From: Vescimonas coprocola
Lineage (GTDB): Bacteria > Bacillota_I > Bacilli_A > RF39 > UBA660
Assembly: GCA_963660615.1 (NCBI GenBank)
Contig: CAVKYE010000001.1
Coordinates: 69,954-133,953, forward strand
DNA length: 64,000 bases
Direction: 5' to 3'
In this document: positions 41,912 through 59,664 of the stretch, in pieces
Layout: each line of letters starts with the position of its first letter
Numbering within the stretch: position 1 is the stretch's first letter
Position numbers and translations under genes: made by a program
Notes under the pieces: model-generated
Told to the model about the DNA's origin: nothing
Database searches by the model: none
Seen by the model: the letters and a program-made list of their open reading frames with translations, nothing else

Positions 41912-42078
41912 TGAATAATACTATAGTAAAAAGATATCACTTCTTGATGAAATGATACCATGAAATTATATAATTAACAATAGTTATAACTTTTTTTGAT
42001 TTTACTTTTAAATAAAGCTATAAAATTATTTGATTTTGGAGCGTAATTGTTTTATAATAATTAACCAAAGGTGAGAAA

Positions 42079-43044: not shown

Positions 43045-43049
43045 ACATA

Positions 43050-43976
43050 TCATTTATTCAACATTTTTTTTAATGAAATCATTATTTCAATAACTATTTT
43101 TTTTAAATCATTATTTTCTGAAAATCTTGGTAACAATCTTAAATTTGCTTCTAAATTATAGATTTCATGTCTGATTTCAAAGTTATCAACATTATATATT
43201 TCAGGATAAAATTCTTTAAAGTATTTTTCTATATTTTGATAATCTTCTATTTTGACCAAATTCTCAGCTTCTTCACTAGCATACTTTAAAGGATTATTAC
43301 ACATTCTTAAAAATATATCTAATTCATAGTCAATTGGAGCATATAATGATGTTTCAAAATCAATTATTTTTATTTGACCATCGTTACAATAAATAATATT
43401 ATCAAAATGAATATCAGAATGAACTAATCTAAAATCACTACTCTTCAAATAATCACTTATATTTTTTAATATTTGTTCAGCCATATCTTTTTCAGTTTGC
43501 GAAAATAGATTAAGATCAAAACATTTATTGAAGTTTCGTTCTAATTTTTCTTTTATATACAATGCCCAATCATAAGATTCACCCTTTATAGAATGAAATG
43601 ATTTCATCATATTTACTATTTCTTTTACTATTTCTTTTCTTTTATCTTCATCAAGCTCATGCCAAACAAAATATAGTGATTTACCATTAATTTTTTCTAT
43701 TATCTCATAAGAAAAATCATCATTAGAAGTTGAAATATAAAACGAATACATTTTTGGAATATATTTATTACCAGCATTACTTTTATAAAACTCAATTTCG
43801 TTTTCAAAATTTGCTTCATTTTCTTTATTGTTACAGATCTTAATAATATATTTATCATCAGCAGAATATACAGAGTTTGTAAATCCAACGTTTATTTTAG
43901 ATATATTTTTAATATCATTGAAAATTTTATCATTATCATCTACTATTTTTTTTAAATATGTGTCCATAAGTGTCAC
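43050..43976 (-). CDS. APH/choline-kinase-family phosphotransferase
   Basis: Brenner motif HSDIHFDNII and IIDFE; 308 aa. Confidence 0.6.
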   Translation of the reverse strand: MTLMDTYLKKIVDDNDKIFNDIKNISKINVGFTNSVYSADDKYIIKICNNKENEANFENEIEFYKSNAGNKYIPKMYSFYISTSNDDFSYEIIEKINGKSLYFVWHELDEDKRKEIVKEIVNMMKSFHSIKGESYDWALYIKEKLERNFNKCFDLNLFSQTEKDMAEQILKNISDYLKSSDFRLVHSDIHFDNIIYCNDGQIKIIDFETSLYAPIDYELDIFLRMCNNPLKYASEEAENLVKIEDYQNIEKYFKEFYPEIYNVDNFEIRHEIYNLEANLRLLPRFSENNDLKKIVIEIMISLKKMLNK

Positions 43977-44005
43977 CTATCTTTCTATTAAATTATATCA
44001 TATTT

Positions 44006-45151
44006 TTATTTTAAATGTAATATTACAAAAAAAGTTTTAAAAATAATTTTAATATCCAACAGCAAAGAATAATTAGAAATGTAATATAAATCATATAAGT
44101 ATCTATACTTTGGTTCTGTATAATAATTACCATATACATGTGATAATCCAGTTATTCCAGCTTTAACATTGTGTCGCAAATTATATAATTGATACTCCTT
44201 TTTATATTTATCAATAAAATAGGTTCTTTCAGGTCTTGGTCCAACGATTGACATCTCACCTTTTAATACATTATAAAGTTGTGGTATTTCGTCAATTTTG
44301 AACTTTCTAATAAATCTACCAACTTTTGTTATTCTAGTATCGTTAGGAGATGCAACTAATGGAATGCCATCTTTTTCTGCATTTACATACATACTTCTAA
44401 ATTTATATAATTTAAACTGTTTGTTATAAATAGTTTCTCTTTCTTGTGAATAAAATATTGGACCGTATGAATCGATTTTTACCAATATTGAAACCAACAA
44501 AATTATTGGAAATAAAATAACCATTGCTATAATTGAAAAAAATATGTCAAACACTCTTTTCAGCAACTTATTTAAACCATCAATTTGCAATTTATTAATT
44601 TTAACAAATGGTATATCTTTTAAAACAATGATTTTATTATTTGAAATAGGTATAATTTCATCTGTTAATTTTAAATATACTTCAACATCTGATGCTAAGA
44701 TTGATAGATCAAGCAAAAATTTTTGATGTGCATCTGAATTAATAATTAGAATATCATATTTTTTTAAACTTTTTACGTCGATAAGTTTATTATACTTTTT
44801 TATAGATTCTATTTTTATATGATAATTATTACAAAAATCTATAATATCAGCATCTTCAATATTACTTTTACACAATGATATATAACAAATACTTTTACTA
44901 GGTAACTTATTGTAATATATTTTTCTAGCAATAAATTCAATTAAATTTAAAATAACAAAAACAATCGATAGTAGTATTACATCATTAAAATCAATTAATT
45001 TAAATATTAGAAAAAATAAAAAACAAATGCTGAAAATTAAAACTCTTTTAATAATTTCTATTAAGTTGTATTTCTTAGGTTGAAAAATATCCATTGTAAT
45101 TAATATAAAATATATTATAAAAAATAGTATAAGAATATTGAATTTATTCAT
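44006..45151 (-). CDS. polyprenyl-phosphate sugar phosphotransferase (bacterial sugar transferase, WbaP/CpsE-like C-terminal domain)
   Basis: Several N-terminal TM helices; C-terminal catalytic domain with GPRPE, DEIPQL and a conserved RxxxxY.DxxY tail. Confidence 0.7.
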   Translation of the reverse strand: MNKFNILILFFIIYFILITMDIFQPKKYNLIEIIKRVLIFSICFLFFLIFKLIDFNDVILLSIVFVILNLIEFIARKIYYNKLPSKSICYISLCKSNIEDADIIDFCNNYHIKIESIKKYNKLIDVKSLKKYDILIINSDAHQKFLLDLSILASDVEVYLKLTDEIIPISNNKIIVLKDIPFVKINKLQIDGLNKLLKRVFDIFFSIIAMVILFPIILLVSILVKIDSYGPIFYSQERETIYNKQFKLYKFRSMYVNAEKDGIPLVASPNDTRITKVGRFIRKFKIDEIPQLYNVLKGEMSIVGPRPERTYFIDKYKKEYQLYNLRHNVKAGITGLSHVYGNYYTEPKYRYLYDLYYISNYSLLLDIKIIFKTFFVILHLK

Positions 45152-45833
45152 AATTTATTACCTTTTTTATTAGTTCATAATCTTCAGGGATACCAATATC
45201 AATAAAAACATCATGATAAAAATAAGGCATAAAATTCATTACTTTAACATATTTCGTAAAGAAATCGTTTTCTATTGAAAAATTTGTATTTTTTTTAAAA
45301 TCAGCTAAAACATTACGATTAAATACATAGCATCCAACACTCATGTAGCCTTTAGAAACAAATTTCTTTTCATTAAAATCGGTTATTCTATTGTTGTTCA
45401 ATGTAACCGATCCATATCTTTCGAAATTTTCCATCATTTTTAAAGATAAAGTAACATCAGCACCACTGTTTAAATGACTTTTATATAAATCAGCAAAGTT
45501 AAGTTTCGTATAAATATCACCATTCATTATGATAACATTATTATTTGTAACTTTTGTTAATGCTTTTAATATTGCTCCTCCTGTACCTAAAGGTTGTTCT
45601 TCCTCTGAATACTCAATTATAATATTTTTATATTTATTTCCAAAATAATCTTTGATATATTCCTTTTTATAACCAGTAGCAAGAATAACTTTGTTTACTT
45701 TTTGTTCGTTTAAATCATTTAATACATATTCTAAAAATGGTTTATCATTAATAGGTGCCATTACTTTAGGGATGTTTTTTATTACACCATTCAATCTAGT
45801 ACCCAAACCACCTGATAAAATTATAACTTCCAT
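45144..45833 (-). CDS. nucleotidyltransferase (LicC-like / sugar-phosphate or phospho-alcohol cytidylyl/guanylyl-transferase)
   Basis: N-terminal ILSGGLGTRL (G-x-G-T-R nucleotide-binding loop). 229 aa, the size of LicC-type enzymes. Confidence 0.6.
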   Translation of the reverse strand: MEVIILSGGLGTRLNGVIKNIPKVMAPINDKPFLEYVLNDLNEQKVNKVILATGYKKEYIKDYFGNKYKNIIIEYSEEEQPLGTGGAILKALTKVTNNNVIIMNGDIYTKLNFADLYKSHLNSGADVTLSLKMMENFERYGSVTLNNNRITDFNEKKFVSKGYMSVGCYVFNRNVLADFKKNTNFSIENDFFTKYVKVMNFMPYFYHDVFIDIGIPEDYELIKKVINYE

Positions 45834-45844
45834 ATACTCACCTC

Positions 45845-46591
45845 TTATAAACTTAGTTTTTTAACTGGAGAACTATAAGGCTCATTCTCAGTTGCTACAA
45901 TATCAAAATCACTTGTAAAATCTTTAAGATAAGTATCATATTCGCAATCTAAAAATCCTACAGATATTTTGTTCAAATCTAATGGGAGCATACTTAAATC
46001 AGTTAAAGAATCTCCTAATAAAACAAAGTTCTTATAATTATTTATATATTTTATATATTCAGTATTATATTTTCTATATGGATCAATCATTTTAGAAAAA
46101 TCTATCATACCATTTTGAATAAAATTTGAAAAAACAACAAGGTTATCAAAATGGCATCCTTCCTTTTTCAATAATTCTATAATCAAATTACCAAAACCAG
46201 ACGAATTTATAATAACTTGGTATTTTCTTTGAAGATAATTTATAGTTTCTATTGCATCATCTCTAAAAATAAACTGATTAGATGATACTATATCATTAAT
46301 AACTTTATAGTTGTTTAAAAATTCTTTTAATAGTTTTAATTTTTTAATCCAAATAGAATGAAGCAATTGCTCTTTTTGCACATTGAAAATATCATTTGAT
46401 AAAAATATTTTTTCTTCTTGTTCCATAATTTTTGACTTTTCCTCTGCATACTGCTTTGGAAAGAAATTTGAAAAAACACCAATTGAACTAACACTATCAT
46501 TGCTAGTAATTGTTTTATCAAAATCTGTTACTATACACAAATTTTCTTTAGGAAAATTATGTACTCTTTGATGATCTTTCATTATTATCAT
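45845..46591 (-). CDS. HAD-superfamily hydrolase/phosphatase
   Basis: DxDxT motif (CIVTDFDKTIT), later GDSLTD. Confidence 0.55.
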   Translation of the reverse strand: MIIMKDHQRVHNFPKENLCIVTDFDKTITSNDSVSSIGVFSNFFPKQYAEEKSKIMEQEEKIFLSNDIFNVQKEQLLHSIWIKKLKLLKEFLNNYKVINDIVSSNQFIFRDDAIETINYLQRKYQVIINSSGFGNLIIELLKKEGCHFDNLVVFSNFIQNGMIDFSKMIDPYRKYNTEYIKYINNYKNFVLLGDSLTDLSMLPLDLNKISVGFLDCEYDTYLKDFTSDFDIVATENEPYSSPVKKLSL

Positions 46592-46640
46592 TGTATCACC
46601 TATTTTCTAGTTTTTCTTAAAATGGGAGATGTTTCCTCTA

Positions 46641-48263
46641 TTACTGCGTTTTTTTTCTATCTATATATTCGTCGTAATTTCCAGAAAAAACTTCCATTTG
46701 TTTATTTTCTAAATTCCAAATTTTATTTGTCATTTTTTCTAAGAAATATCTATCATGTGATACAAATAATAAAGTTCCTGAATAATTCATTAAGTTTTCT
46801 TCTAAAACTTCTCTGGAATTTAAATCCAAATGATTTGTTGGCTCATCTAAAACAAGTAAATTAAGGTTTTGATTCATCAAAATACATAGTTTTAGCCTTA
46901 TTTTTTCACCACCTGATAATACTTTTATTTTTTTATAAACATCATCACTAGTGAACAACATTGATGCTAATTTATTTCGTGCTTCACCTTGATTCATACT
47001 ATCGAATGACTGAATAAATGTTTCTAATATCGTTTTTTCTTCATCTTCAAAAGATGTATCTTGTGTCAAATATCCAATTTTTGCAGTTGATGAAATTTCA
47101 ATTATTCCATCATCAGGCATTTCTTGACCTAATAAAATTTTTAATAACATAGTCTTACCAGAACCATTTTCTCCAATTATTCCAATTCTGTCTCCCTTTT
47201 CAATAGTTAAATCTATATCAGAAAATAATTCTTTTTGTTCAAAAGATTTTGCAATTCCAACAGCTTCTAAAAGTGTTGCTCCTGAACGACTTCCAGAAAA
47301 TTCATTCATTCTCATACTTTTTTTCTCAAAAATTGGTTTGTCTATTTTTTCCATTTTATTTAATCTGTTTTCAATTTTATTTGCAACACCTCTCAAAATT
47401 TGTGAATTCATTGATTTTAAACGTCTTACTTGCATTTCCATTCTGTGTGTTATGTATTGATTATTTTCATAAGCTTTATATCTTTCTAAAAACCTTTGCT
47501 CTTTATCTTGTATATACTTAGAATAGTTACCATCATATTCTTCTATTCCATCCGTATCTAATTCAAGCACTCTGCCTATTACATGATCCAAGAAGTATCT
47601 ATCGTGTGATACAACTAACACACTTCCTTTATACTGTTTTATATAATCTTCTAACCATTCCAATGTTTTAATATCTAAGTTATTAGTAGGTTCGTCCAAC
47701 AATAATATTTCTGGTTCTTCTAACAACATTTTTGCAACAAGCACTCTAGTCTTTTCGCCACCACTACATTTATCAAAGATAGAATTTGACAAATCTTCAG
47801 TTATATTCAAACCATTTTTTATCTTTTCAACTTTACTGCTAATTGAATAGCCATTATTTTTATCAAACGCTTCCTGTAATCTTCCATACTTTTCCAATAG
47901 TTTATTCATATCATTTTCATTTAATGAGGTTGCTAATAGTCCTTCTATTGCTCTCATATCTTTTTCAATTGACATAACTTTTTCAAATGGTAAATACAAA
48001 ACATCTTGAACAGTCATATTAGGATATTCAGGAATTTGTTCCAAATAGCCCATTGAACATTTTTTAAAAAATTGAATATTTCCAGAATCTGGTGTTTCTA
48101 ATCCTTTTAATATTTTTAATAAAGTAGATTTGCCTGTCCCATTTCTGCCTAAAAGTCCAACAACTTCTCCTTCTTTTAAATCAAAACTTACATTATCAAA
48201 TATTACATCAGCACCATAAGACTTTTTTAAATTATTAGCTTTAAAAATCACCATATAAATCAC
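46641..48263 (-). CDS. ABC-F family ATPase (two tandem ABC nucleotide-binding domains, no transmembrane domain)
   Basis: Two Walker A motifs (GRNGTGKST; GENGSGKT), two ABC signatures (LSGGEKTRVLVA; LSGGEKIRLKLC), two Walker B motifs, ~80-aa inter-domain linker. Confidence 0.8.
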   Translation of the reverse strand: MIYMVIFKANNLKKSYGADVIFDNVSFDLKEGEVVGLLGRNGTGKSTLLKILKGLETPDSGNIQFFKKCSMGYLEQIPEYPNMTVQDVLYLPFEKVMSIEKDMRAIEGLLATSLNENDMNKLLEKYGRLQEAFDKNNGYSISSKVEKIKNGLNITEDLSNSIFDKCSGGEKTRVLVAKMLLEEPEILLLDEPTNNLDIKTLEWLEDYIKQYKGSVLVVSHDRYFLDHVIGRVLELDTDGIEEYDGNYSKYIQDKEQRFLERYKAYENNQYITHRMEMQVRRLKSMNSQILRGVANKIENRLNKMEKIDKPIFEKKSMRMNEFSGSRSGATLLEAVGIAKSFEQKELFSDIDLTIEKGDRIGIIGENGSGKTMLLKILLGQEMPDDGIIEISSTAKIGYLTQDTSFEDEEKTILETFIQSFDSMNQGEARNKLASMLFTSDDVYKKIKVLSGGEKIRLKLCILMNQNLNLLVLDEPTNHLDLNSREVLEENLMNYSGTLLFVSHDRYFLEKMTNKIWNLENKQMEVFSGNYDEYIDRKKTQ

Positions 48264-48305
48264 TCCTTTTTCGTTGATATATTATACCACAAGTTTGTGT
48301 TTTTT

Positions 48306-49592
48306 TTATTTTTCTTCTAAAATATAACAACCATATACATTTATTTTTGATTTTTCTCTGATATTAATGATTTTTTTAGTACATTTTATCAAATCGTATA
48401 CATAAAATCTCTTATTTAACAATAGATTTTTTAAATCAATAATACATTCTTCGTTACATTCAATATAAAAAATTTTTTTAGATTTTGACCAAATTTTATA
48501 AACCTTCAAACTTTTTTCTTTTTTTAATTTTCTAGATAAAAATTTCCTTATGTTTTTTAGTTCATTAAATATAAATAGTGGATGCTTTAATAAATTTATT
48601 ATTCTTTCAATTATTTTATTGATTTCGTGAGTATGCTTATTTGTACTATTGTTGTTATATTCTATACCTAATTCTTCTGTTGACATTTCTTCAAACCCAT
48701 CAAATTGAAAGTTAAGATTATTTCTGTTGTAAAAATCAATAATTCTTTCGTAATCAGAATTTATAATTATATCATCCCACCACCAACTCATTGCTGAATA
48801 AGTCAGTTTTAAAAAGTATGAACCCCATAATCCTGAAGTAAAATATAATTTGCTACCATAATCATCTATATATGAATAATCAGAGTTTTTTGCATATTCA
48901 CCAAAATATAAAATTTCTTTATAAGCTTTCATTGCGTATTGTAAATTTTTAAATGCACTTTCGCTTGGAAAACTATAAAAATGAAGATCCACGTAACAAT
49001 TTAACTTTTTTCTATACAAATCATATTTTTGGTAGTTTGAAATACTACATGTAAAAATATATTTCTGATATTTTTTTGATAATATGTTAATTAACTTATT
49101 ACACCAATTTATTAAAACTTTATCATTACAATTAACCTGATCTATTTCATTCATTATTTCAATAAACTTTATATTATTATATTCAATAATACTATCTAGC
49201 ACATAATTTATATCTTCAACTAGAACATTATTAATTTTTTTAAAAAATGATGATACTTTTTTATCAATGGGTTGATATTTATTAAAATTCCATGAAAAGT
49301 TTTTATCATTAATATCTAAATAATTGATTTTATTAAAATCAGTGAAATTTAGCAAAGATATTATTATATTAATATTTTTTGTTGAGGCATAATGAACAAT
49401 ATGTTTTAGTGTTATTACATCTTTTTTATTATAAATACAATTTAATCCCCATTTACTAAAAATAATTCTTATAATTTTTATCTTGTGTTTATCACACCAA
49501 TCTATATAATCAACATATTTTTCTAAAGCATTGGAATCTGATGGATTCCAGCAAAAATTCATGCCGATGGTTGTATTCTTCATATTCTTCAC
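48306..49592 (-). CDS. hypothetical protein, possibly TIM-barrel glycoside-hydrolase-like
   Basis: 428 aa; weak resemblance to GH5/GH26-type cellulase-family patterns; low certainty. Confidence 0.3.
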   Translation of the reverse strand: MKNMKNTTIGMNFCWNPSDSNALEKYVDYIDWCDKHKIKIIRIIFSKWGLNCIYNKKDVITLKHIVHYASTKNINIIISLLNFTDFNKINYLDINDKNFSWNFNKYQPIDKKVSSFFKKINNVLVEDINYVLDSIIEYNNIKFIEIMNEIDQVNCNDKVLINWCNKLINILSKKYQKYIFTCSISNYQKYDLYRKKLNCYVDLHFYSFPSESAFKNLQYAMKAYKEILYFGEYAKNSDYSYIDDYGSKLYFTSGLWGSYFLKLTYSAMSWWWDDIIINSDYERIIDFYNRNNLNFQFDGFEEMSTEELGIEYNNNSTNKHTHEINKIIERIINLLKHPLFIFNELKNIRKFLSRKLKKEKSLKVYKIWSKSKKIFYIECNEECIIDLKNLLLNKRFYVYDLIKCTKKIINIREKSKINVYGCYILEEK

Positions 49593-50890
49593 CTTTTTAA
49601 AGATAATACTCTGTTTTTTATCAATTGTTTATCTTCATCTAACATATCAACAGCTGTTTTCAAAAGTTCATCTAAATAAAATCTCTCTTTACAACAGGTA
49701 TTTTCGTTATATATATACTTTTGCCCAATGCATCCAGATAAACACATTGGATACAATTTGCATTTTTGACATTTGTCAAAATATAATGTATTACACCAAA
49801 TATTATAATTTTTACTAGAAAAGTCAATTCCACTATAAATATCTCCAATTTTATTTAATTCATCATCTGGACACATTTGACATTTTGTAATTATACCAGC
49901 AGGTCCAATTACAAGTGAATCATCATTAGAAGCATAACAATTGTTCTTTTTATATGTTAAAGGGAGTCCATTAACACCTTGAATATGATTATATTTCTTT
50001 AATAATTTGAAAAATTCAATTGAATAATTTCCTATTTGTCGCATTTCTATAAGTTCTTCTTTTGTTAAATTTTGATTTTTAGGTGTTTTAAAAACAACTC
50101 CTAAATATAATAGAAGATTTTTATTACCATGATGTTTTTTTAGTATTTCTTGAACTAACAACATTGCATCATTAAAATTTTCCTTTGTTATATTAAATCT
50201 TATTTGCACGATTATATTTTTATTTAACAAGCAATCAATCATATCCAAATTATGCTGAAAGGCATCAAAATTCTTTATTTTATAGTCCTTACTTTTATTG
50301 TGTTGTTCTTTATTACCATCAAAAGCAAACTCTATTTTATTTAAATGCCAATTTTCTATTGCATACTCAATGTCATCTTTATCAAGCAGTGACAAATTAG
50401 TTGCTATACTTGCTTGATAACTTATGCCATTCTCATTACTGAACTCAATCAAACTTTTAGATATTTTATCAATAATATCTCTACGAACTAATGGTTCTCC
50501 TCCAAACCAATATACTCTTATTTTCTTTTTTTCTTGGCTTTCTTGCTTAATGAAATTTATTGTTTGTTCAACAACCTCATCACTCATATCATATCTTGGT
50601 GAATCATTTTCATAACAAAAAGAGCAATTAGCATTACATTTAGTAGTTGGTAAAATAGTAAAACGTTTATAATCTTTTTCTTTTGATAAATATTCACTTC
50701 GTTTATTAACAACTTCTTCAAATTCATTAAAATCATCAGCAACAAGAAAACCATTTGATACCAAGTCAGAATAATGATTAGCAAACAAATTATCATAGTT
50801 GTCAAATGTAATTAGTTTCGAATTCTTAGTATTGTATATAAAATTCAAACCATTGTGTTGGAATTTTATATTATAAAATGATTCTTTCAT
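49589..50890 (-). CDS. radical SAM enzyme with C-terminal SPASM/twitch Cys-rich domain
   Basis: CNANCSFC (CxxxCxxC) near the N-terminus; C-terminal cluster C..C..C (KCQMCPDDE...CQKCKLYPMCLSGC). Confidence 0.8.
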   Translation of the reverse strand: MKESFYNIKFQHNGLNFIYNTKNSKLITFDNYDNLFANHYSDLVSNGFLVADDFNEFEEVVNKRSEYLSKEKDYKRFTILPTTKCNANCSFCYENDSPRYDMSDEVVEQTINFIKQESQEKKKIRVYWFGGEPLVRRDIIDKISKSLIEFSNENGISYQASIATNLSLLDKDDIEYAIENWHLNKIEFAFDGNKEQHNKSKDYKIKNFDAFQHNLDMIDCLLNKNIIVQIRFNITKENFNDAMLLVQEILKKHHGNKNLLLYLGVVFKTPKNQNLTKEELIEMRQIGNYSIEFFKLLKKYNHIQGVNGLPLTYKKNNCYASNDDSLVIGPAGIITKCQMCPDDELNKIGDIYSGIDFSSKNYNIWCNTLYFDKCQKCKLYPMCLSGCIGQKYIYNENTCCKERFYLDELLKTAVDMLDEDKQLIKNRVLSLKR

Positions 50891-50899
50891 ATTGTCCTC

Positions 50900-51628
50900 C
50901 TATATTATAAGTGATAATCCACCATCAATCACTATACTCTCACCAGTAATATATTTTGCATGATCAGATATTAAAAATAGTATCAAATCAGCAACTTCAT
51001 CTGGTTTTCCATGTCTTTTCATGGGAATATTCATTGCAGCTTCATTTATCAATTCATTATTATTTAAATCTTTTCTTAGTAAAGGTGTATCAATAGAACC
51101 AGGTTCAACACAATTGACCCTTATATTACAAGATGCTAATTGATAAGCCAATTCCTTTGAAATCATTTTAATGGCTGATTTTGATGAAGAATAATGAACT
51201 ATATCTCTAATTATTTCAGTATGAATTGAGGTAACATTAACAATTGACTGATTATTTATTGGAGTTAATTTCATTAATTTAATTATTTCTCTTTCTATAA
51301 AAAATATCGACTTCACAGTAGCATTATACATCTTATCCCATTGCATATAATCAATATTATCAATAGTAACATTTTCTTGATATCCTATTGTATTAATAAT
51401 AAATTTAACCACCAATTTTTGATTATTAATTTTTAACTTAATAAACTTTTTTGCATTTTCAAAATCACTTAAATCTAACTGATAAAATTCATCTTTTTTA
51501 TTCAATAAATCAACTGGTGATTTATCCAATATTATTAACTTTAATTCAGGATAAGTATTCCTTATCTTTTGGTATGTTGCTTTGCCTATACCCGAAGCAG
51601 CCCCAAATAAAAATCCTATTTCTTGCAT
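50900..51628 (-). CDS. short-chain dehydrogenase/reductase (SDR)
   Basis: N-terminal GAASGIGKAT Rossmann motif; YxxxK-like (YSSSK). Confidence 0.7.
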   Translation of the reverse strand: MQEIGFLFGAASGIGKATYQKIRNTYPELKLIILDKSPVDLLNKKDEFYQLDLSDFENAKKFIKLKINNQKLVVKFIINTIGYQENVTIDNIDYMQWDKMYNATVKSIFFIEREIIKLMKLTPINNQSIVNVTSIHTEIIRDIVHYSSSKSAIKMISKELAYQLASCNIRVNCVEPGSIDTPLLRKDLNNNELINEAAMNIPMKRHGKPDEVADLILFLISDHAKYITGESIVIDGGLSLII

Positions 51629-51646
51629 ATTGTCATCTCCTTACTA

Positions 51647-52738
51647 TTATCTTATATAATCATTTGGTGATATTTCTTTTGGCGTTGATTTCCACTTGAA
51701 TGATACTGGATTTGAATCTCCAGAGCAATATTTACACAACTCAACAGGTCTATCTATATATTTAAGAACTAATTTTCTGCTTTTAAAAGATGTTATTTCT
51801 TTATTTGTTTCTGGATAATTGTATTGAAATTTATTATTAAAAATATTAATAAAGATTGATGGTGCACATCTACTTATAACACCATTATATATAATAATAC
51901 ATTTTTCACATTCCTTTGCCACATCTTCAAAGTCTGTTGATTCATTCTCATTTAAAATTTTATTAAATCTATCACCTAGTCTAAATATTTCATAACTTAC
52001 ACCATTTTTCATAAGTCTTGATTCAACCTCATTTCTTCTCTTCATCATTGGTGGATATAATGAAATTGAAATTGAAATATTTAACCTTGATAACTCTTTT
52101 AAAAATTCTTCTGATTTTGATAATAATAATATTCCATTTGTTATTATTTTCATGTTTGAATATGGATATATTTGTTTTGTATATTTAATATAGTCTAAAA
52201 TGTCATCACACAACAAAGGTTCTCCACCTAAAAATCTAAACTCAAATATTTTAAAACCTAATTTATTAATATTATTAATATCTTTTTTGTATTGTTCTAA
52301 ATCATAAAATTTTTCTTCGGCTTGTAGGTTTGAAAAATGATAACATCTATTACATTTTAAATTACAATGTATTGCAATTGGTATTTGAATTTTATCGATC
52401 CAATAATAGGCTAAATATTTTGATATAACGCCATCAATATTATCAACTTTGTTGGTATATATATAACTAAGCTTATTTATGTCATATATATATACATTTG
52501 TTTTATCAAAATTTAGTGAAGTAATTATCAATTCTCTCTTTTTTTCATTTAGTGATGATGGTAACACCAAAATTGAATTGTCAAATTCTTTATTTGTGAT
52601 ATTTAAATCTTCATAATTATTAAAGTATATTTTAGTATACATATCATATACTTTTGTAAAAGTAAGATTTAAAAAGTCACTAAATTCATCTTTCTCATTA
52701 TCTATCATTATTATTGCATTTTGCATGATTACCTCCAT
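51647..52738 (-). CDS. radical SAM enzyme with C-terminal SPASM/twitch domain
   Basis: CNLKCNRCYH (CxxxCxxC); C-terminal CEKC...C...CKYCSG. Confidence 0.75.
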   Translation of the reverse strand: MEVIMQNAIIMIDNEKDEFSDFLNLTFTKVYDMYTKIYFNNYEDLNITNKEFDNSILVLPSSLNEKKRELIITSLNFDKTNVYIYDINKLSYIYTNKVDNIDGVISKYLAYYWIDKIQIPIAIHCNLKCNRCYHFSNLQAEEKFYDLEQYKKDINNINKLGFKIFEFRFLGGEPLLCDDILDYIKYTKQIYPYSNMKIITNGILLLSKSEEFLKELSRLNISISISLYPPMMKRRNEVESRLMKNGVSYEIFRLGDRFNKILNENESTDFEDVAKECEKCIIIYNGVISRCAPSIFINIFNNKFQYNYPETNKEITSFKSRKLVLKYIDRPVELCKYCSGDSNPVSFKWKSTPKEISPNDYIR

Positions 52739-53756
52739 TATTACGTTTAATTATTATACATAGAAATTTTTTTACAAGTTGTTTTGCTTGTTTTACTAAT
52801 CCTCTAAACGATAATTTTATTTTTACAAAAACATTTGGGTTTATATAAATATTGTAATTTTTTGAATTTTCTATGCTAAAATGTTTTTTTAATAAACTAT
52901 TTCCTCTTGAAAAATCAAAAACATTATATTCTTTATCCTTCAAATAATTTAACAAATGATATATTACCAATTTACCTGGCTGAAAGCGACTATATTCCTT
53001 ATCAAATGCCATATGATATGCCATAAAATTACTAGGAGTGGCTATCAATCCAATCATGTGAGCTATTGGAATATTATTATAGTATAAAATACAAAGCATA
53101 CTATAATCAGTTTTAGAAATATTTCTAAATAATTCTCTTGCCTTCTCATCAACAAATAAAGCTTTACTCTTTTTTATTTTATTGCTTCTACTTTCTATGT
53201 CAAAAATTATATCTATGTAATCTTGTACATCCTTTCCAGATATAATTTTAAATGATAAGTTGTTATTTTTTCTCAATATACTTTCAATATATCTTTTTTC
53301 TTTTCTTTTAATAACAGAATCTAAATCCTGGTTTAAGGAAACAAATGGATTATCTGAAGCAAATTCTGTAATACACTTTTGCTCTTTTATACTATTTATA
53401 TTAAAATTGCATTCTAATAAAGTAATTGTTTTTTTACTTTCTATGCAATATTTCTCTAAAGTTTTAATAATTTCTCTTATATCACCATCATATAGAAAAG
53501 AAACTTTATCTAAATATCTTCCACCTATAACTACCAAATTTTTAAAGGGCATTTTTATTAAAGGTAAAATAAATTGTATTGAATTATTATTATAACCTTT
53601 TAATATAGTATATTGATGACTTTGATAAACTGAAATATAATTTTGAAACCACCATAAAGAATTGAAATAATTTCGAGTAGCATTTTGTTGCCATAGTTTT
53701 TTCCATTCCTCTTTTGTTTTAGCATCAAGTTTATCTATTTCTTTTATAATTAACAT
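52698..53756 (-). CDS. FemAB/GNAT-like acyl/aminoacyl-transferase family protein (uncertain)
   Basis: 352 aa; architecture reminiscent of BioF2-like/FemAB acetyltransferase-fold proteins found in glycan clusters; by memory. Confidence 0.3.
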   Translation of the reverse strand: MLIIKEIDKLDAKTKEEWKKLWQQNATRNYFNSLWWFQNYISVYQSHQYTILKGYNNNSIQFILPLIKMPFKNLVVIGGRYLDKVSFLYDGDIREIIKTLEKYCIESKKTITLLECNFNINSIKEQKCITEFASDNPFVSLNQDLDSVIKRKEKRYIESILRKNNNLSFKIISGKDVQDYIDIIFDIESRSNKIKKSKALFVDEKARELFRNISKTDYSMLCILYYNNIPIAHMIGLIATPSNFMAYHMAFDKEYSRFQPGKLVIYHLLNYLKDKEYNVFDFSRGNSLLKKHFSIENSKNYNIYINPNVFVKIKLSFRGLVKQAKQLVKKFLCIIIKRNNGGNHAKCNNNDR

Positions 53757-54561
53757 AGCTCTTATACCTCACAATATCATAAATATCCGTCAAATCATTG
53801 CTTTTTTTCTTCAACACTATAAATAATTTATACTTAATAAGTTTTAAGAAAAGTCTTATCTTGTGATATTTTTTATCTAATAGATAATCACTCTTTCCTT
53901 GAATTTCTATTCTTTTTATAGCAACTTCATAATTACCAGTCCAGTAATGAATAACATATAATTTAGGATCATATATCATATTAATACCATTTTTTCGTGC
54001 TATATCCTGTATTAAAACATCTTCATTAGCACCTAATTTACTACCGTCATGACCGAAATTATTATTGAATCCATTTACTTTGTTGAAAGTTTCTTTTGTC
54101 ATAACTAATAGACATCCACCCAAATATTTATATTTTGGTAATATTTTTTTATCATCACCAAAATCTTTCATTCCAGCAATATATTGATATTTGATAGGTA
54201 AAAACTTAGGAATTTCCTTTGGAATTATTTTACCACCAACTATTGCTTTCAATGATTTATTGTTAGCGTAGCTATTTAAAGCTCCGAAAAACGAAGATTT
54301 GGGTATTATATCATCATCTAAAAACACTAATAACTCATTAGAAGCTTCCTTCGCACCTCTGTTTCTTGCATTACTTAATCCTGTTTTTTCTTCATGATAA
54401 TAATGAATTGCTTTATTCTTCTTATATTGCTGCAATGCTTTATTTTCACTATTATCAATAAGAATTATTTCATTTTCATTAAGATGTTTTATTAAAGAAT
54501 TTAGTAATTCATTCAATTTTCTTGATTTTCCTATTGAAGAAATTATATATGATACTTTCAT
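53731..54561 (-). CDS. family 2 glycosyltransferase
   Basis: IILIDNSEN...VFLDDDIIP (GT-A fold DxD). Confidence 0.7.
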   Translation of the reverse strand: MKVSYIISSIGKSRKLNELLNSLIKHLNENEIILIDNSENKALQQYKKNKAIHYYHEEKTGLSNARNRGAKEASNELLVFLDDDIIPKSSFFGALNSYANNKSLKAIVGGKIIPKEIPKFLPIKYQYIAGMKDFGDDKKILPKYKYLGGCLLVMTKETFNKVNGFNNNFGHDGSKLGANEDVLIQDIARKNGINMIYDPKLYVIHYWTGNYEVAIKRIEIQGKSDYLLDKKYHKIRLFLKLIKYKLFIVLKKKSNDLTDIYDIVRYKSYVNYKRNR

Positions 54562-54572
54562 ATTGATTTCAC

Positions 54573-55610
54573 CTAACCTTTATGATTTTCAACACACTTT
54601 TCGCAGTATTTCGTTACTACAGGATCATTAATAAATCTTTTTCGCATTTGTTGCATATAAACATTATTCCAAATGTCTTCCTTATCATTTATATTTCCAT
54701 ATTCACTAGATGGATTAATAACTCTTCCACAACTTCCCATGTTTCCATAAGCATCAAATGATAAATTTTTAAAATACCAGTCACAATTTTTACAATAATT
54801 ACTTTTGGTGATTTTGTGTGGTAAATTTGTCTTTGTACGAATATTTGATTTTGCATAATTATATAACTCATCTATCTTATCATTAAAATCATCTAAATCT
54901 GTTAATGCGTCTTTAATATCAAAATCTATGTATCTATGTAAATCAATTCTATCTACATTCAAATTATCACAAAACTTTAAAAATTCATAACTACTGTTCA
55001 TAAACTCATGACTACAAACACCACTAACTACAATTTCTGCTTTTGATTTATACTTCTTTTTAGCTTCAACAAGTTTTTTTATGTTTGATACTGTTTTATC
55101 AAATATAACATTTTTAACCTTACATATTGAACTATATTCTTCTGAGTTTGATGCATTTAAACTTATAGATATTTGATTTAACATTTTTTCTTTCATTAAA
55201 AATTCAATTAAATCATCATTTAATAAAGTTCCATTTGTAATAATATTTATTTTCTTTTTGTTTTTAGATGTTAATTTTATTATTTCTTTAAATTGTGGAT
55301 GAAGTAGTGACTCACCTACACCACCCAACATTACAAAAACTGATTCTGGGAACTTCTTATATATTTTTTCAAGCATATCTAAGCTTATAAATTTTTTGCT
55401 AAGTTGTTTTTGATACTCAAAGTCATTATTTTTTCCAGAATGATGAGGACACATTTCGCATCTTAAATTGCATAAATCTGATACATAAATAAGCAACCAA
55501 ATAGGTCTATAATTTAAAATTGTATCCTTTTTATTACTCTTTTTGTATAAGTAATAATTGTAAATTTGTTTAATACTAAATCCATACTTCAAGTTTTTTA
55601 AATTCACCAT
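54573..55610 (-). CDS. radical SAM enzyme with C-terminal SPASM/twitch domain
   Basis: CNLRCEMCPHH (CxxxCxxC); C-terminal CKNCDWY...CGRV...CEKCVENH. Confidence 0.75.
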   Translation of the reverse strand: MVNLKNLKYGFSIKQIYNYYLYKKSNKKDTILNYRPIWLLIYVSDLCNLRCEMCPHHSGKNNDFEYQKQLSKKFISLDMLEKIYKKFPESVFVMLGGVGESLLHPQFKEIIKLTSKNKKKINIITNGTLLNDDLIEFLMKEKMLNQISISLNASNSEEYSSICKVKNVIFDKTVSNIKKLVEAKKKYKSKAEIVVSGVCSHEFMNSSYEFLKFCDNLNVDRIDLHRYIDFDIKDALTDLDDFNDKIDELYNYAKSNIRTKTNLPHKITKSNYCKNCDWYFKNLSFDAYGNMGSCGRVINPSSEYGNINDKEDIWNNVYMQQMRKRFINDPVVTKYCEKCVENHKG

Positions 55611-55618
55611 TTTTTCAC

Positions 55619-56293
55619 CTACCTATCCAAATAGTTCTGATTCAAAATTTTTCTTTTTATAAAAGCTAAATGTAAATAAATATTTCCTAATTTTGAAACG
55701 AATAATTTATATTTATTAAAATTTAAATAACCATTAATACATATTCTAGGAATTTCCTGTTTGTTAAATGATTTGTTAACATGAAAAGGTAATACTGTCA
55801 TTCCATAATCAAAACCAGAATTTGACATTTCATCTTTCACAGTATTATTATATTTTCCCATTGGATAAACCAAAATTTTCTTTGATATATAAGATTTAGT
55901 AACAGTCAATTCCTTTTTTAATACCAAAGTTGATAAAGTCGATAGATCCAAATGACTTTTTGTATGAAAGTAGAACTGTGCATACTTTAATCTTTTTAGT
56001 TCTGGCTCTGTCAAAAATCCTTTTTTACCAATATTGTCTTCTATGATAGCTAAAGAATATTTTATAGAATTTTGTTCTAAATATTCTATAGCAGGTTTTA
56101 TTGATTTTAAACCGTCATCAAACATAATCATAATATTATTTCCAGTTGTAGCATTTATAAATTCGTCAAAATGGCAAAAGTTGAATTTTTTTCTTTTTAA
56201 ATACTTTAATTGCATTAAGAACATATTCATTGGAACTTCCATAAATTTATCTGAATTGCCAATTCCGTGATATACAGTAATAATTCTCTTCAT
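55619..56293 (-). CDS. polysaccharide deacetylase family protein (NodB-like)
   Basis: ITVYHGIGNS...MFDDGLKS resembles the NodB motif 1 (TFDDG). Confidence 0.55.
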   Translation of the reverse strand: MKRIITVYHGIGNSDKFMEVPMNMFLMQLKYLKRKKFNFCHFDEFINATTGNNIMIMFDDGLKSIKPAIEYLEQNSIKYSLAIIEDNIGKKGFLTEPELKRLKYAQFYFHTKSHLDLSTLSTLVLKKELTVTKSYISKKILVYPMGKYNNTVKDEMSNSGFDYGMTVLPFHVNKSFNKQEIPRICINGYLNFNKYKLFVSKLGNIYLHLAFIKRKILNQNYLDR

Positions 56294-57450
56294 TATTTTT
56301 TCACCAACTTTTCTATAGCTACATTTATGTCGTATTTTTCTATAATGAATTTTTGTTGATTCATAATTATATTTTTTAATGAATGTGTATCTAATTTATT
56401 TATTTGTTCTATTTGCCTAGCCAGTTCCTCAGGAGTATTTCCTAAGAATACAAACTTCTTTATGTCTTCTTCTACACCTTCAATTCCTAAGCTATTTGAT
56501 ACAATTGGTAATCCTACACTTGCTGCCTGTAAAATTTTATTTTTAACACCTGAACCTGCTATAATAGGACATATATACATATCATATTTTTGAAGTTCTT
56601 TTTTCATGTCGTCAACATAACCAACGAAATGAACATTATTTGATTCTAAACTTTTTAGTTCTTCTGAACAGTTTTTTCCTACAAAAGACACACTATAATT
56701 AAAACCAAGTAATGGCATTATTTTCTCAACGATATAGTGGACTGCAAGAATATTTGGTTCATAATCCATCATTCCCGAAAAAACAATTTTAGTTCTCTTA
56801 TTTTTTGCCTTAGGTGATACATTTTCATTTATCCATTTTTCAGTATCTATTGAATTATTTATTACTACCATATTATTCAAATCAATATTCCATTTATCTA
56901 TAAGATATTTTTTATCTTCTTCTGAACAAATAATTGTATTATATTTCTTAATAATTGAGGTTTCATAAATTTTGTGTTTTATATATTCCTCTTCACTTAT
57001 TATCTTTTTTATGCCTTTACTTTGCTTTCTTATCCTATCATAATACTTTGTTAGACTATCAGTAATATCAATATATACTTTAGATTTATCAAAGTATTTA
57101 CCATACTGTGCCATTCTTAATCTTTTAACATAAATCATATCATAATCTGTTTTTGATTTTTTTAAATATTTATGCAATTTTTTATTGTACACATATAGGG
57201 TTCTTAAAGTATACGGAGAAAGTATTCCAATAAAGCAATTTATTAAAGAAATAATCTTTGTTTGCTTAAATAAAATAACTTTGTCCACCATTTGTTTTGT
57301 TTCTTCTAAATATACCAAGTCTTTTTTAGACGAGTATAATGATATCAAAGTAATATTACATCCCTTATTTTTTAAAGCTTTAATAATATTTTTACTTCTT
57401 ACTCTTGAAAAATCATTTGGTAAAGACGGTGCTATATAAAGTATCTCCAT
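56293..57450 (-). CDS. family 4 (GT-B) glycosyltransferase
   Basis: C-terminal GT4 signature (CPIIAGSGVKNKILQAASVGLPIVS). Likely start MEILYIAPS at 57450. Confidence 0.7.
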   Translation of the reverse strand: MEILYIAPSLPNDFSRVRSKNIIKALKNKGCNITLISLYSSKKDLVYLEETKQMVDKVILFKQTKIISLINCFIGILSPYTLRTLYVYNKKLHKYLKKSKTDYDMIYVKRLRMAQYGKYFDKSKVYIDITDSLTKYYDRIRKQSKGIKKIISEEEYIKHKIYETSIIKKYNTIICSEEDKKYLIDKWNIDLNNMVVINNSIDTEKWINENVSPKAKNKRTKIVFSGMMDYEPNILAVHYIVEKIMPLLGFNYSVSFVGKNCSEELKSLESNNVHFVGYVDDMKKELQKYDMYICPIIAGSGVKNKILQAASVGLPIVSNSLGIEGVEEDIKKFVFLGNTPEELARQIEQINKLDTHSLKNIIMNQQKFIIEKYDINVAIEKLVKK

Positions 57451-58603
57451 AAACATTTTCCTCCTCGTATTTTTCTTTGAAAATTTGATAGTTACGCTCA
57501 CCAAGTTTTTTTAATCTTGGTGGATTTGATAATAACTTTTGTATTGAATTTATTATTTCTGCATCATCATCAACTATAAAAGTCCCTTTAACACTTGGTA
57601 ATCCTTCAGCACCTAATTTGGTACTAACAACCGTTTTACTATGTGACCAATATTCCAATATTTTAATTCTTGTTCCACTACCAAAATATACAGGAACTAC
57701 ACAAATCCAAGATTCATCAATAAGTTTATTTTTTAATTTTTCCTCTGCATTTTCATATATTTTAATATTCATTTTACCGTCGTATTCTTTTATATCAGAA
57801 TTTATAGCTGATCCCACAATGTTAAATTTAATAGATGGGTTGTTTAAATATAATTTTGTATAAATATTCTTAATAAAGTGTATTAGTCCATGTTTATTTG
57901 GTTTCCAAGATAAACTACCAACGAATATTAAAGTAGGACTATTACTATATTTAGCTAAATCATTTCTCATATTTGCATAGGTATTATTTACAACAAATGA
58001 TTTTTTCTTTATTTTTTTTGAACAAGAAAAAGCTTTCAAATCTCGTTCACTGACAAAGAAATTGCTTTTAGATTCACTTAAAGCTTGAATTTCTACATTT
58101 TTCATAAGTCTTGATTCTCTTTTCAACATTATGTTCATTGGAAATGTTTCGTACTCTGATGTTCTTTTAATTAATTCATATTCAACATTGTGATCATCAA
58201 AATAGAATGGAATATTATTAATATGCTTTTTGTATTGTACTGTTGCAATTTCGGCAAAGAAAACAAAATCATATTGATTATCTGTACATAATTGATTTAT
58301 TTTATTTGCAATTTCCTTATTATAGTATTGCAGATTTATAATTGGTTCTTTACTTATAAAACTATCTAGTGTATTTTTCATAAGAGTTTTCTTTGTTCGA
58401 ACAAAAGGATATCCATATATATTATTTGTATATTTTTTTAATTCTTTAATTTTACTATTTCCAAAATCTTTATTCCAATATCCAATAACATCAACTTTAT
58501 AATACTTTGACAAAAATTTTATCCAAGCAGAATTTCTTTTTAATCCACCTCCATAAGCAGGTGCAGGTACAAACTTTGTTATAAATAATATTTTCTTTTT
58601 CAT
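57413..58603 (-). CDS. family 4 (GT-B) glycosyltransferase
   Basis: VPVYFGSGTRIKILEYWSHSKTVVSTKLGAEGL (EX7E-like GT4 region). Confidence 0.7.
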   Translation of the reverse strand: MKKKILFITKFVPAPAYGGGLKRNSAWIKFLSKYYKVDVIGYWNKDFGNSKIKELKKYTNNIYGYPFVRTKKTLMKNTLDSFISKEPIINLQYYNKEIANKINQLCTDNQYDFVFFAEIATVQYKKHINNIPFYFDDHNVEYELIKRTSEYETFPMNIMLKRESRLMKNVEIQALSESKSNFFVSERDLKAFSCSKKIKKKSFVVNNTYANMRNDLAKYSNSPTLIFVGSLSWKPNKHGLIHFIKNIYTKLYLNNPSIKFNIVGSAINSDIKEYDGKMNIKIYENAEEKLKNKLIDESWICVVPVYFGSGTRIKILEYWSHSKTVVSTKLGAEGLPSVKGTFIVDDDAEIINSIQKLLSNPPRLKKLGERNYQIFKEKYEEENVYGDTLYSTVFTK

Positions 58604-58617
58604 AAAAACCTCCTAAA

Positions 58618-59454
58618 TTAGAAAATTATCAATATATCTAAATTACCAAAAATTGTATAGTCAGAGTATGGTAATATAAAATATGTTTCGTCTTTTTTTA
58701 CCTTTAAAGATTTATTTGCTATATTTATAGTCCCATTACCGTTCAATACTAGCACTATTTGACAACAATTTTTTTTACCGAAATACTTTTCTCCTTTTAG
58801 ACAAACTTTGTTTATTTTGAAATTTGAGCTTTTAAATCTTTTAAAATTATGGTATATATTTTTTCTCATTTTGAACTTGCTAAAACGTGCGTTTTCAACA
58901 AACTCTTTTTGAGTTAATTCCCTATTATTATCCCAATCAAAATATCTATAAGTTACGTCATAATTATTTTGAACCTCACATACAACATTATTTTCTAATA
59001 TCGAATGTATAGTACCTGGATTAACAACTGCAAAATCATATTTATTACAAGTAATTATATTAGAGTTAGATAATATAGTATCTAAATTTAAATTCCTTTT
59101 CTTAATACTTTTATTTAAACCTAATAATATTTTAGAATTATGTTTTAAAAATAGCCATGTTTCTTTTTTACTTTTAGGATGAACCTGTAATGAAAGTTTT
59201 TTTGAAGAATATATATATTTAATTAAGAAAGAAAATTGCTTTCTTCTTAAATATTTTTTCCCAAAAAACTCTTCTTTTTGAGGACCAATATATAGTTGAT
59301 ATAAACTATAAATGTTTTTATTATCATCTTCAATATAGTTTGACTGTTGATTATTTACTTCAAATTTAATTACCTCACCTATTACTTTTTTATTTATTTT
59401 TTTAGCACCCCATATTTTTTCTACATCAATACTAATGACTTTATAAATTTTCAT
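58618..59454 (-). CDS. type I phosphomannose isomerase-like protein
   Basis: LSLQVHPKSKKE matches the class I PMI LSxQVHP motif. ATG at 59454 (MKIYKV) with GGTTGAGGTG upstream. Confidence 0.55.
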   Translation of the reverse strand: MKIYKVISIDVEKIWGAKKINKKVIGEVIKFEVNNQQSNYIEDDNKNIYSLYQLYIGPQKEEFFGKKYLRRKQFSFLIKYIYSSKKLSLQVHPKSKKETWLFLKHNSKILLGLNKSIKKRNLNLDTILSNSNIITCNKYDFAVVNPGTIHSILENNVVCEVQNNYDVTYRYFDWDNNRELTQKEFVENARFSKFKMRKNIYHNFKRFKSSNFKINKVCLKGEKYFGKKNCCQIVLVLNGNGTINIANKSLKVKKDETYFILPYSDYTIFGNLDILIIF

Positions 59455-59461
59455 ATACACC

Positions 59462-59550
59462 TCAACCAAAAAAGGGGACAAAAAGCAATCGATTGCCTTT
59501 TATCCCTATTCTCATACTGTACTCTCCTAAGTTTGTTGGCAATCGCCACC
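59462..59550 (-). promoter_or_regulatory. structured, relatively GC-rich 5' leader with alternative hairpins and a terminator-like element (possible attenuator/riboswitch-like control) in front of the glycan cluster
   Basis: Minus-strand RNA: ...GGGGUGGCGAUUGCCAAC...AAAGGCAAUCGAUUGCUUUUUGUCCCCUUUUUUGG. CGAUUGCC in the first element can pair with GGCAAUCG of the second, which otherwise forms GCAAUCGAUUGC + U-run. Confidence 0.35.
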
Positions 59551-59565
59551 CCAAATTTGCTCTTT

Positions 59566-59644
59566 ATTCTACATTATTTTATTAAAATAGTCAATAATTT
59601 ACTTTAATTTTGATAGTATTGTACTTTAATTTTGATAGTATTGT
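59566..59644 (-). promoter_or_regulatory. promoter of the glycan cluster: -35 TTGACT / 17 nt / -10 TAGAAT, preceded by a perfect 22-bp tandem duplication
   Basis: Minus strand: TTGACT(59594..59589)-17 nt-TAGAAT(59571..59566). Directly upstream, ACAATACTATCAAAATTAAAGT x2 (forward coordinates 59601..59622 and 59623..59644). Confidence 0.5.
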
Positions 59645-59664
59645 ATAATTAAAAGAATCTGATT

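Follow-up and report, generated by a model that had tools for sequence, protein, structure and literature searches.

A conserved, predicted attenuator at the head of a glycan gene cluster, and a lineage-specific tandem duplication beside it

Introduction

How is a long glycan operon controlled when it is carried as the cargo of a mobile element that has a sigma-like gene of its own? The question is raised by a short piece of minus-strand DNA within a 64-kb stretch (referred to below as the window, by which is meant the whole stretch that was analysed), where a 22-bp tandem duplication, a promoter and a GC-rich leader follow one another ahead of the first gene of a glycan cluster. An earlier reading made from the letters alone (the sequence-only reading) had taken this arrangement to be a duplicated operator in front of a switchable leader, in other words two layers of control which are separate from the element's sigma factor. 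Comparison with related loci leads to a picture in which the two features are treated apart. It is probable, if well short of certain, that what is seen here is a portable attenuator belonging to the cluster and, side by side with it, an unrelated and recent slippage duplication.

The glycan cluster and its leader

The cluster comprises about 16 co-directional genes, which run from the first gene to 43050 and encode glycosyltransferases, a deacetylase, a GNAT protein, an SDR, a nucleotidase, a nucleotidyltransferase, an initiating sugar transferase and a kinase. It also holds an ABC-F ATPase of the ribosome-associated type and three or four radical-SAM enzymes, one of them with a SPASM domain; these genes (46641..48263 and 49589..55610) are unusual for a plain polysaccharide locus. 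On the other side of the leader lie a sigma-like gene (59665..60195, Sigma70_r2), the gene of an HTH_36 protein, that of a Ccr/XisF-like large serine recombinase and the N-terminal part of dac. The features on which the argument depends, all on the minus strand, are as follows.

58618..59454, minus strand: first cluster gene, encoding a 278-aa cupin of the class I mannose-6-phosphate-isomerase-like type and preceded by the ribosome-binding site GAGGUG
59462..59515, minus strand: 17-codon ORF, MRIGIKGNRLLFVPFFG, with AGGAGAG upstream, reading through the terminator hairpin
59468..59506, minus strand: intrinsic terminator of the leader, with a 14-bp stem and loop UCGA, then C and U6
59498..59537, minus strand: variable central segment of the leader, purine-rich, with AGGAG-like motifs and no conserved structure
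59538..59552, minus strand: predicted 5' strand of the anti-terminator, GGGG (59552..59549) and CGAUUGCC (59545..59538)
59566..59594, minus strand: putative sigma-70-class (housekeeping-type) promoter of the glycan cluster, TTGACT, 17 nt, TAGAAT
59601..59644, minus strand: two exact tandem copies of ACAATACTATCAAAATTAAAGT (59644..59623 and 59622..59601), a lineage-specific duplication
59651..59680, minus strand: terminator of the sigma gene, GAGUCUGA, a 10-nt loop and UCAGAUUC, then UUUU (-7.2 kcal/mol)

The leader is about 105 nt in length and reaches the ATG of the first gene at 59454. Its GC content is 41.5%, against a regional mean of 24.7%. The sequence-only reading had named it the most GC-rich spot of the region; it does have the top value between 55 and 64 kb, although the rank is shared, at 0.42, with one 100-nt interval inside the dac gene. 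Within the leader, the last 9 nt of the central segment (59506..59498) already belong to the 5' arm of the terminator, and the segment as a whole forms the loop which is closed by the anti-terminator helix. Nearly all of the polymorphism within the clade of the window falls in this segment, the one exception being a U-to-C change in the 3' arm of the L025 terminator.

The promoter

The -35 hexamer, TTGACT (59594..59589), is separated by 17 nt from the -10 hexamer, TAGAAT (59571..59566). It had been described as following the repeat immediately; the hexamers and their spacing are as described, but 6 nt (AAATTA) intervene between repeat and -35. In terms of its consensus the promoter is not distinguished from chance, since there are 25 such sites against 33.5 in shuffled sequence, and the assignment is therefore made from its conservation. 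Four leader clades could be compared, with first-gene identities of 94-99%, 79-80% and 63%. When they are aligned, TTGA and TA.A.T are the same throughout, and the hexamers are always separated by 17 nt, although the sequence of these 17 nt differs. The promoter call of the earlier reading is upheld on these grounds. Transcription would be expected to start near G59560 or A59558, as judged from the position of the hexamers. A weak TATACA-18-TACAAT in the repeat region, whose -10 spans the junction of the two copies (59647..59618), was considered as a further promoter and set aside, its 9 of 12 matching positions being at chance level.

The leader terminator

Transcripts from TTGACT-17-TAGAAT would meet a strong intrinsic terminator about 55 nt downstream. 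Its stem is made by 59506..59493 with 59488..59475, giving the hairpin GGGAUAAAAGGCAA-UCGA-UUGCUUUUUGUCCC at 59506..59475, after which come C and U6 (59474..59468) as CUUUUUUGG. The two leader elements that had been picked out previously, GGCGAUUGCC and GCAAUCGAUUGC, are both present. The palindrome then described, however, is only the top of the 14-bp hairpin, such that the full stem with its U6 was missed and the real terminator is larger. The hairpin has a folding energy of -17.7 kcal/mol in the window and of -12 to -22 kcal/mol across all clades. When the terminator is aligned, 93% of the cells at its 15 pairs are paired, compared with 47-62% in slid controls, and two pairs show a compensatory change (G-C to A-U, at the base). 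In short, a GC-containing hairpin directly followed by a U-tract is kept among the relatives, and it stands downstream of a same-strand promoter and ahead of the first gene, as in an intrinsic attenuator. A weak local hairpin within GGCGAUUGCC, UGGC-GAUU-GCCA, was tried as a further conserved element and rejected, being broken in L018/L020.

The anti-terminator pairing

Outside the terminator, the best-conserved part of the leader is the predicted 5' strand of the anti-terminator. Its partners are GGCAAUCG (59497..59490), in the 5' arm and loop of the terminator, and CCCC (59477..59474), at the base of the 3' arm. CGAUUGCC and GGCAAUCG are exact complements over 8 nt; for the window alone, when the upstream 54 nt are shuffled with their dinucleotides preserved, a complement of at least 8 nt turns up in 0.37% of cases. 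The 8 core pairs are 100% paired in 10 sequences, one of them having changed from C-G to U-A in three sequences and two others passing through G-U. When GGGG:CCCC is added to the core, the resulting 12 pairs are 96% paired, against 31-57% in slid controls, and their score is reached by none of 500 shuffles. GGGG:CCCC by itself is 88.9% paired and is the weaker of the two anti-terminator helices. The leader therefore has an alternative helix which takes up part of the terminator and which is both conserved and covarying (C-G to U-A, G-C to A-U). Support from covariation is nevertheless modest, because the set holds four independent leader lineages, five of the eight core pairs never vary and the structure tested was itself derived from one of the aligned sequences. 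It should also be said that the anti-terminator core and the lower terminator stem cross one another, and in principle the two could coexist as a pseudoknot; mutual exclusion of the two folds therefore rests on the weaker GGGG:CCCC helix.

Folding and the predicted switch

The energies of the two folds differ with the length of the RNA. For the full window leader the terminator fold comes to -27.5 kcal/mol, compared with -21.3 kcal/mol when the anti-terminator is enforced, and across the loci folded the gap in favour of the terminator is 6-17 kcal/mol. RNA truncated ahead of the terminator 3' arm adopts the anti-terminator fold in the window, L035, L028 and L021. In the nascent window RNA, the anti-terminator is the minimum-energy structure up to 83 nt, and the terminator takes its place from 85 of 95 nt. 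Stable and mutually exclusive structures are thus obtained by calculation, in keeping with the anti-terminator/terminator layout that had been proposed from the letters.

What would be expected of such a leader is that the upstream GGGG...CGAUUGCC pairs with the 5' arm and loop of the terminator (GGCAAUCG) and with the base of its 3' arm (CCCC), that this anti-terminator forms first, and that it stays the best fold until the 3' arm of the terminator is almost complete. Since the alternative structure would form first and be displaced late, the outcome would be decided kinetically, within the last ~10 nt of synthesis. Overall, the comparative and folding evidence supports the leader as a conserved terminator/anti-terminator attenuator, with regulation itself predicted from sequence and modelled structure.

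The most durable of the competing explanations is that the terminator acts as a constitutive partial block, i.e. as an insulator which damps expression of the cluster, with the upstream complementarity being a by-product that has no switching role. The terminator fold is, as given above, considerably more stable than its alternative (by 6-17 kcal/mol), no sensor, aptamer or conserved leader peptide was found at the leader, and a related clade with an unrelated leader (L030-L032) also ends in a hairpin followed by U7, all of which would be in accord with a simple block. Such a block does not account for a 5' strand that is the best-conserved sequence outside the terminator, nor for a pairing which survives a C-G to U-A double change and G-U transitions; moreover, the complementarity has a chance probability of 0.0037, and the anti-terminator is the minimum of the nascent RNA until the last moment. 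Taken together, these points make a constitutive block unlikely, and the attenuator remains the preferred reading of the leader.

The 22-bp tandem duplication

The tandem duplication is as perfect as had been read, with two exact copies of the 22-mer on the minus strand at 59644..59601. Tandem Repeats Finder (TRF) places it at 59600..59645, with period 22, 2.1 copies, 100% match and a score of 92, the highest of the 101 rows for the window. The same two exact copies are present in L025, L026 and L027, and the repeat is therefore not an assembly artefact; together with the window, these make four independent assemblies of the lineage.

The repeat lies in a fast-changing seam, rich in AT, from the sigma-gene terminator to the promoter of the cargo; here AATTAT separates the UUUU of the terminator from the first copy. 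The most informative comparison in this regard is L035, another copy of this element, which aligns collinearly with 63396..56677 (94.7% identity). Between the sigma terminator and the -35 it has a spacer of related sequence (...TATCAAAAATAAAATAAATTAAAGTTAATTATTGAAT) and similar length, with small AT-rich insertions. This spacer has no period-22 repeat, and its divergence is far greater than that of the sigma gene and the leader on either side of it. The duplication is likewise absent from L014-L021, L028, L036 and L042-L053, and the 22-bp unit was not found in any of 24 other loci. The duplicated segment corresponds to nearly the whole of the seam-specific spacer and has TA microhomology at its bounds. 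The repeat is, accordingly to these comparisons of sequence, most likely a recent slippage duplication of a short AT-rich spacer and not a conserved control site. Replication slippage would have occurred in unconstrained AT-rich DNA, at the place where the element core joins the captured cargo; at most the duplication would shift the upstream DNA by two helical turns, and it is probably neutral.

That the tandem 22-mers are instead a duplicated operator or activator site, at which a regulator of the element (the HTH_36 protein or the sigma factor) would exert promoter-level control on top of the leader, is quite improbable. This proposal draws on the position of two exact copies directly upstream of the -35, on the regulator genes just upstream, on a 22-bp period that puts both copies on one face of the helix, and on the stability of the duplication, which is fixed in four independent samples. 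It is opposed by the missing repeat and the far-diverged spacer of L035, which is otherwise the same element, and by the absence of the duplication from all other promoter copies and from 12 other members of the sigma-element family. Furthermore, a search for ACAATACTATCAAAATTAAAGT with up to three mismatches gave no further match in the 64-kb window (0.03 being expected by chance), for example near the regulators' own promoters. The sequence-only reading had made the "duplicated operator" one half of a two-layer control, and this half has to be given up, as no other copy of the promoter is accompanied by the repeat. At most a lineage-specific gain of function by duplication might be envisaged, for which the comparison of sequences provides no support.

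Two other suggestions about the repeat can be set aside. Replication-initiator-like PHROG matches of the HTH_36 protein might bring to mind iterons and an origin, a reading that is rejected because there are only two copies, which are missing in L035 and in the rest of the family; the unit has no further copy in the window or in the 24 loci, and L035 has no period-22 repeat, whereas operators or iterons would be expected to recur. The 22-mer also resembles the repeats with ACTATAGT that lie close to the start of the recombinase (74% complementarity over 27 nt), but many other AT-rich pairs resemble one another to this degree, and the match is put down to chance. To read the repeat as a seam duplication avoids a false operator annotation, and it has a use of its own, in that the repeat marks the junction of the cargo with the core of a dac-targeting recombinase element family.

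What might set the switch

To return to the leader and its attenuator, the signal or factor which would choose between the two folds was looked for at the locus as an Rfam match, a conserved ORF or an adjacent RNA-binding protein, and none of the three was found there. In Rfam, the whole window gave only tRNAs at the gathering threshold, and the interval 59300..59800 gave nothing relevant at E values up to 10, the best hit (E = 0.37) being a CRISPR repeat model inside the sigma gene. The search of Rfam suggested by the earlier reading hence places the leader in no family.

A riboswitch of a kind not yet recognised, in which one or the other fold would be stabilised through an aptamer for a small molecule within the leader, is very improbable. 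The layout does resemble an expression platform, the leader is GC-rich, and for a glycan cluster one would logically look to a sugar-nucleotide, or a metabolite related to it, as the ligand. Against this, there is no Rfam match at the gathering score or at E up to 10, the conserved stretch 5' of the switch amounts to only ~15 nt, too little for the known aptamer classes, and a covariance model gives a single copy per locus. Moreover, the ~40 nt between the anti-terminator strands vary freely between clades, in sequence and in predicted structure, and a ligand aptamer is therefore unlikely.

Least credible of all is attenuation by the ribosome, in which translation of the 17-codon ORF would melt the terminator and so couple cluster expression to a translation or stalling signal: the ORF does have a good AGGAGAG site, a 6-nt spacer and an ATG, it covers the whole hairpin with a stop codon overlapping the ribosome-binding site of the next gene, and it is retained in most copies of the window clade, but it has been lost in four lineages (L035, with the ATG deleted and the ribosome-binding site changed; L028, with AGG for ATG; L018/L020, where L018 lacks the ATG and L020 has ATG followed by an immediate stop codon; and L021, with the same ATG and stop) and its ribosome-binding site is weakened in L047, while terminator and anti-terminator persist in all of these loci. 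Since it is not conserved, the ORF is probably not a leader peptide.

Processive antitermination of the LoaP/UpxY/RfaH type was also considered. No NusG/KOW domain was found by Pfam in the 16 cluster ORFs and the element genes, and there is no internal terminator-like site on the minus strand in 43000..59475; LoaP-type antitermination is therefore neither needed nor indicated.

For the attenuator, then, it may be supposed that a trans-acting factor modulates the switch. This could be a protein or an RNA which acts on the conserved 5' strand or on a weak hairpin, or else the speed of the polymerase through the U-rich arm could play this part; neither a small-molecule aptamer nor a leader peptide would be involved. 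As for its role, a pathway of 16 genes for a surface glycan or glycoconjugate would have its main checkpoint at this attenuator.

Portability of the promoter and leader

Promoter, leader, terminator and the CGAUUGCC:GGCAAUCG pairing are all kept in four sequence clades of the glycan cluster, with at least five different kinds of upstream neighbour. The neighbours 5' of the cluster are as follows.

HTH_19 gene: L014-16 and L044-53, the commonest context
NUDIX gene: L017
PNP_UDP_1 gene: L018
Methyltransferase gene: L021
Lactamase_B_2-like ORF: L028
Sigma gene: window and L035

In the loci of other context, homology to the window starts ~10 nt 5' of the -35. The differing neighbours imply that promoter and leader, as a unit, are part of the cluster rather than of the mobile element or of its sigma gene. 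The leader was not found 3' of the sigma homologues in 13 genomes, where the cargo differs at every locus. Given that the promoter is of housekeeping type and occurs in the absence of a sigma gene, it is independent of the sigma factor of the element. This part of the sequence-only reading stands, as the whole unit recurs in genomes without a nearby sigma gene.

With the covariance model R1, no second copy of the leader was found in the window or in the other loci, there being one per locus. A pattern scan of metagenomes returned ten loci, four with true leaders (L035, L036, L042 and L043) and six that are chance matches. In a phage collection, blastn with 58500..61500 gave no match; scans of viral contigs with the terminator sequence gave zero matches and then a single chance match within a coding region.

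Homologues of the first gene are abundant, the protein family being present on hundreds of contigs, from which it follows that the pathway is common in small-genome uncultured human-gut Bacilli. Carriers of the cluster are human-gut assemblies labelled 'Mycoplasma sp. CAG:611', 'Clostridium sp. CAG:914' and 'Tenericutes'. Distant first-gene homologues (51-58% identity) lie within a housekeeping operon without any leader, and a clade at 60-64% identity carries a different one. That clade heads a different operon, with PHP-domain genes (L030 1240..1420; L032 2840..3000), and its leader is unrelated in sequence yet ends in a G-rich hairpin and U7, after a TTGACA-17-TAATAT promoter.

A gene for a 71-aa HTH_19 protein stands upstream of the cluster both in the commonest context and in the 63% clade (L014 3509..4000; L021 2672..4000), and the proteins of the two clades are 65% identical. 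In the HTH_19 contexts an inverted repeat and a T-run lie directly 5' of the -35. The window has distant HTH_19 paralogues only, at other places (29268..29468 and 7706..7873). The protein is a candidate for an ancestral regulator, whose loss would date from the joining of cluster and element.

The practical consequence of a regulatory RNA leader which travels with its cluster is that it shows what to mutate and to fuse to reporters.

The dac-targeting element

The two halves of the DD-carboxypeptidase (dac) gene, a Peptidase_S11 part at 63017..63664 and a PBP5_C part at 41378..41806, are separated, such that an element of ~21 kb (about 41807..63016) splits the gene. The order of dac N-part, recombinase, HTH_36, sigma, cargo and dac C-part recurs in genomes of uncultured gut Bacilli and 'Tenericutes', and the same core is seen in the same gene of diverged gut Bacilli (L001, L003, L006, L007, L008, L010 and L035). 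Among these elements the recombinases are more alike (75-97% identity) than are the dac parts of the hosts (55-74%), a pattern suggestive of horizontal spread.

The stop codon of the sigma gene (59667..59665) is within the loop of its terminator. Homology among 13 sigma loci stops at ...CAGATTCTTTT, beyond which each one differs. In other words, conservation of the element core ends with the sigma-gene terminator; the cargo begins directly after it, extending over 0.75 kb to 5.4 kb in other genomes and up to 17.9 kb overall. Most related loci have a hairpin and U-run at the end of the sigma gene, with a different stem sequence in some (e.g. L001). This family of dac-targeting elements, with a cargo slot after the sigma terminator, is more unusual than the attenuator.

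Several further observations were made on the element. In L012 (4804..6294) and L013 (4877..6276) the dac halves are 87 nt apart and the gene is not split by the element; a truncated sigma remnant (residues ~77-176) comes directly after dac, in what could be a decayed or rearranged copy. In L023 (3896..5161) a second kind of insertion at the dac target is present, where the dac gene, which stands beside a housekeeping copy of the isomerase-like gene, is also truncated and is followed by an HTH_36 gene. The HTH_36 protein resembles phage replication initiators (PHROG 270, 678 and 428). The ~470 nt between the HTH_36 and sigma genes (60196..60664) contain no ORF of at least 50 aa and have a counterpart of the same size in L001; this gap could house an origin or a regulatory RNA. 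Finally, direct and inverted repeats with the palindrome ACTATAGT (AAAACACTATAGTAATATT, AAAATACTATAGTAATTTT) occupy 62905..63010, with the start of the recombinase on one side and the end of the dac N-part on the other. These repeats may represent an attachment site, or else a region that controls the recombinase.

Comparison with known systems

The attenuator is an unnamed addition to a well-known kind. A bolder claim, which we put forward tentatively and regard as doubtful, would be that it is an undescribed, compact and glycan-cluster-specific class, in which the anti-terminator engages both arms of the terminator, and that the promoter, attenuator and cluster form a portable cassette which was captured here by the dac-targeting Ccr/XisF-like serine-recombinase element. 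If this were true, the switch would be set by a trans factor on the conserved 5' strand or else by how fast the polymerase passes through the U-rich 3' arm; under the second alternative, a pathway that consumes UDP-sugars would be coupled to the supply of UTP.

In Tn916, the cargo gene tet(M) of a mobile element has its own promoter and a terminator-containing leader with a short ORF. The plan here is similar, although the short ORF is not conserved and the cargo is a 16-gene glycan cluster. Firmicutes attenuators of the types bound by PyrR, TRAP, LicT/SacY, HutP and ANTAR proteins have a promoter-proximal terminator whose 5' arm overlaps an alternative helix. The present leader shares the PyrR/TRAP/LicT-type plan, in that the 5' arm of its terminator overlaps a helix with upstream RNA. 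Unlike in those protein-bound attenuators, the anti-terminator strands are ~40 nt apart, and inspection of the leader for known protein-recognition motifs found none of them: regularly spaced (G/U)AG repeats, UAG triplets at intervals of 4 nt, paired hexaloop hairpins and a compact RAT hairpin are all absent.

LoaP, UpxY and RfaH bring about processive antitermination of polysaccharide and secondary-metabolite operons (PMC12691694, PMC11685472). As in these operons, a 5' leader with an intrinsic terminator stands ahead of a long biosynthetic operon; the conserved feature is here a competing RNA helix, whereas there it is a small recruiting hairpin.

The nearest published analogue in layout is the zipper-type attenuator, cATT, of the pLS20-family conjugation operons, in which an upstream stem-loop, weak and well conserved, is followed by a central segment and then, downstream, by an intrinsic terminator (PMC13401043). 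The upstream strand of cATT complements the terminator's 5' stem together with its loop, with the resulting extended hairpin as anti-terminator; this forms by default, and the controlling factor is unknown (PMC13401043). The likeness is one of design and not of sequence or gene content. The present leader has ~105 nt against 456 nt in the pLS20 cATT (about 4-fold shorter) and no sequence relationship to it. Its central hairpins are short and not conserved, in place of the long conserved central stem by which the pLS20 type zippers, and it is followed by an isomerase-like cupin in place of conAn1/conAn2. Having neither the long central stem-loop nor conAn1 downstream, it is compared with cATT by analogy and not as a member. 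Both leaders precede a long operon on a mobile element, but the attenuator described here is part of the glycan-cluster cargo, whereas cATT belongs to its element.
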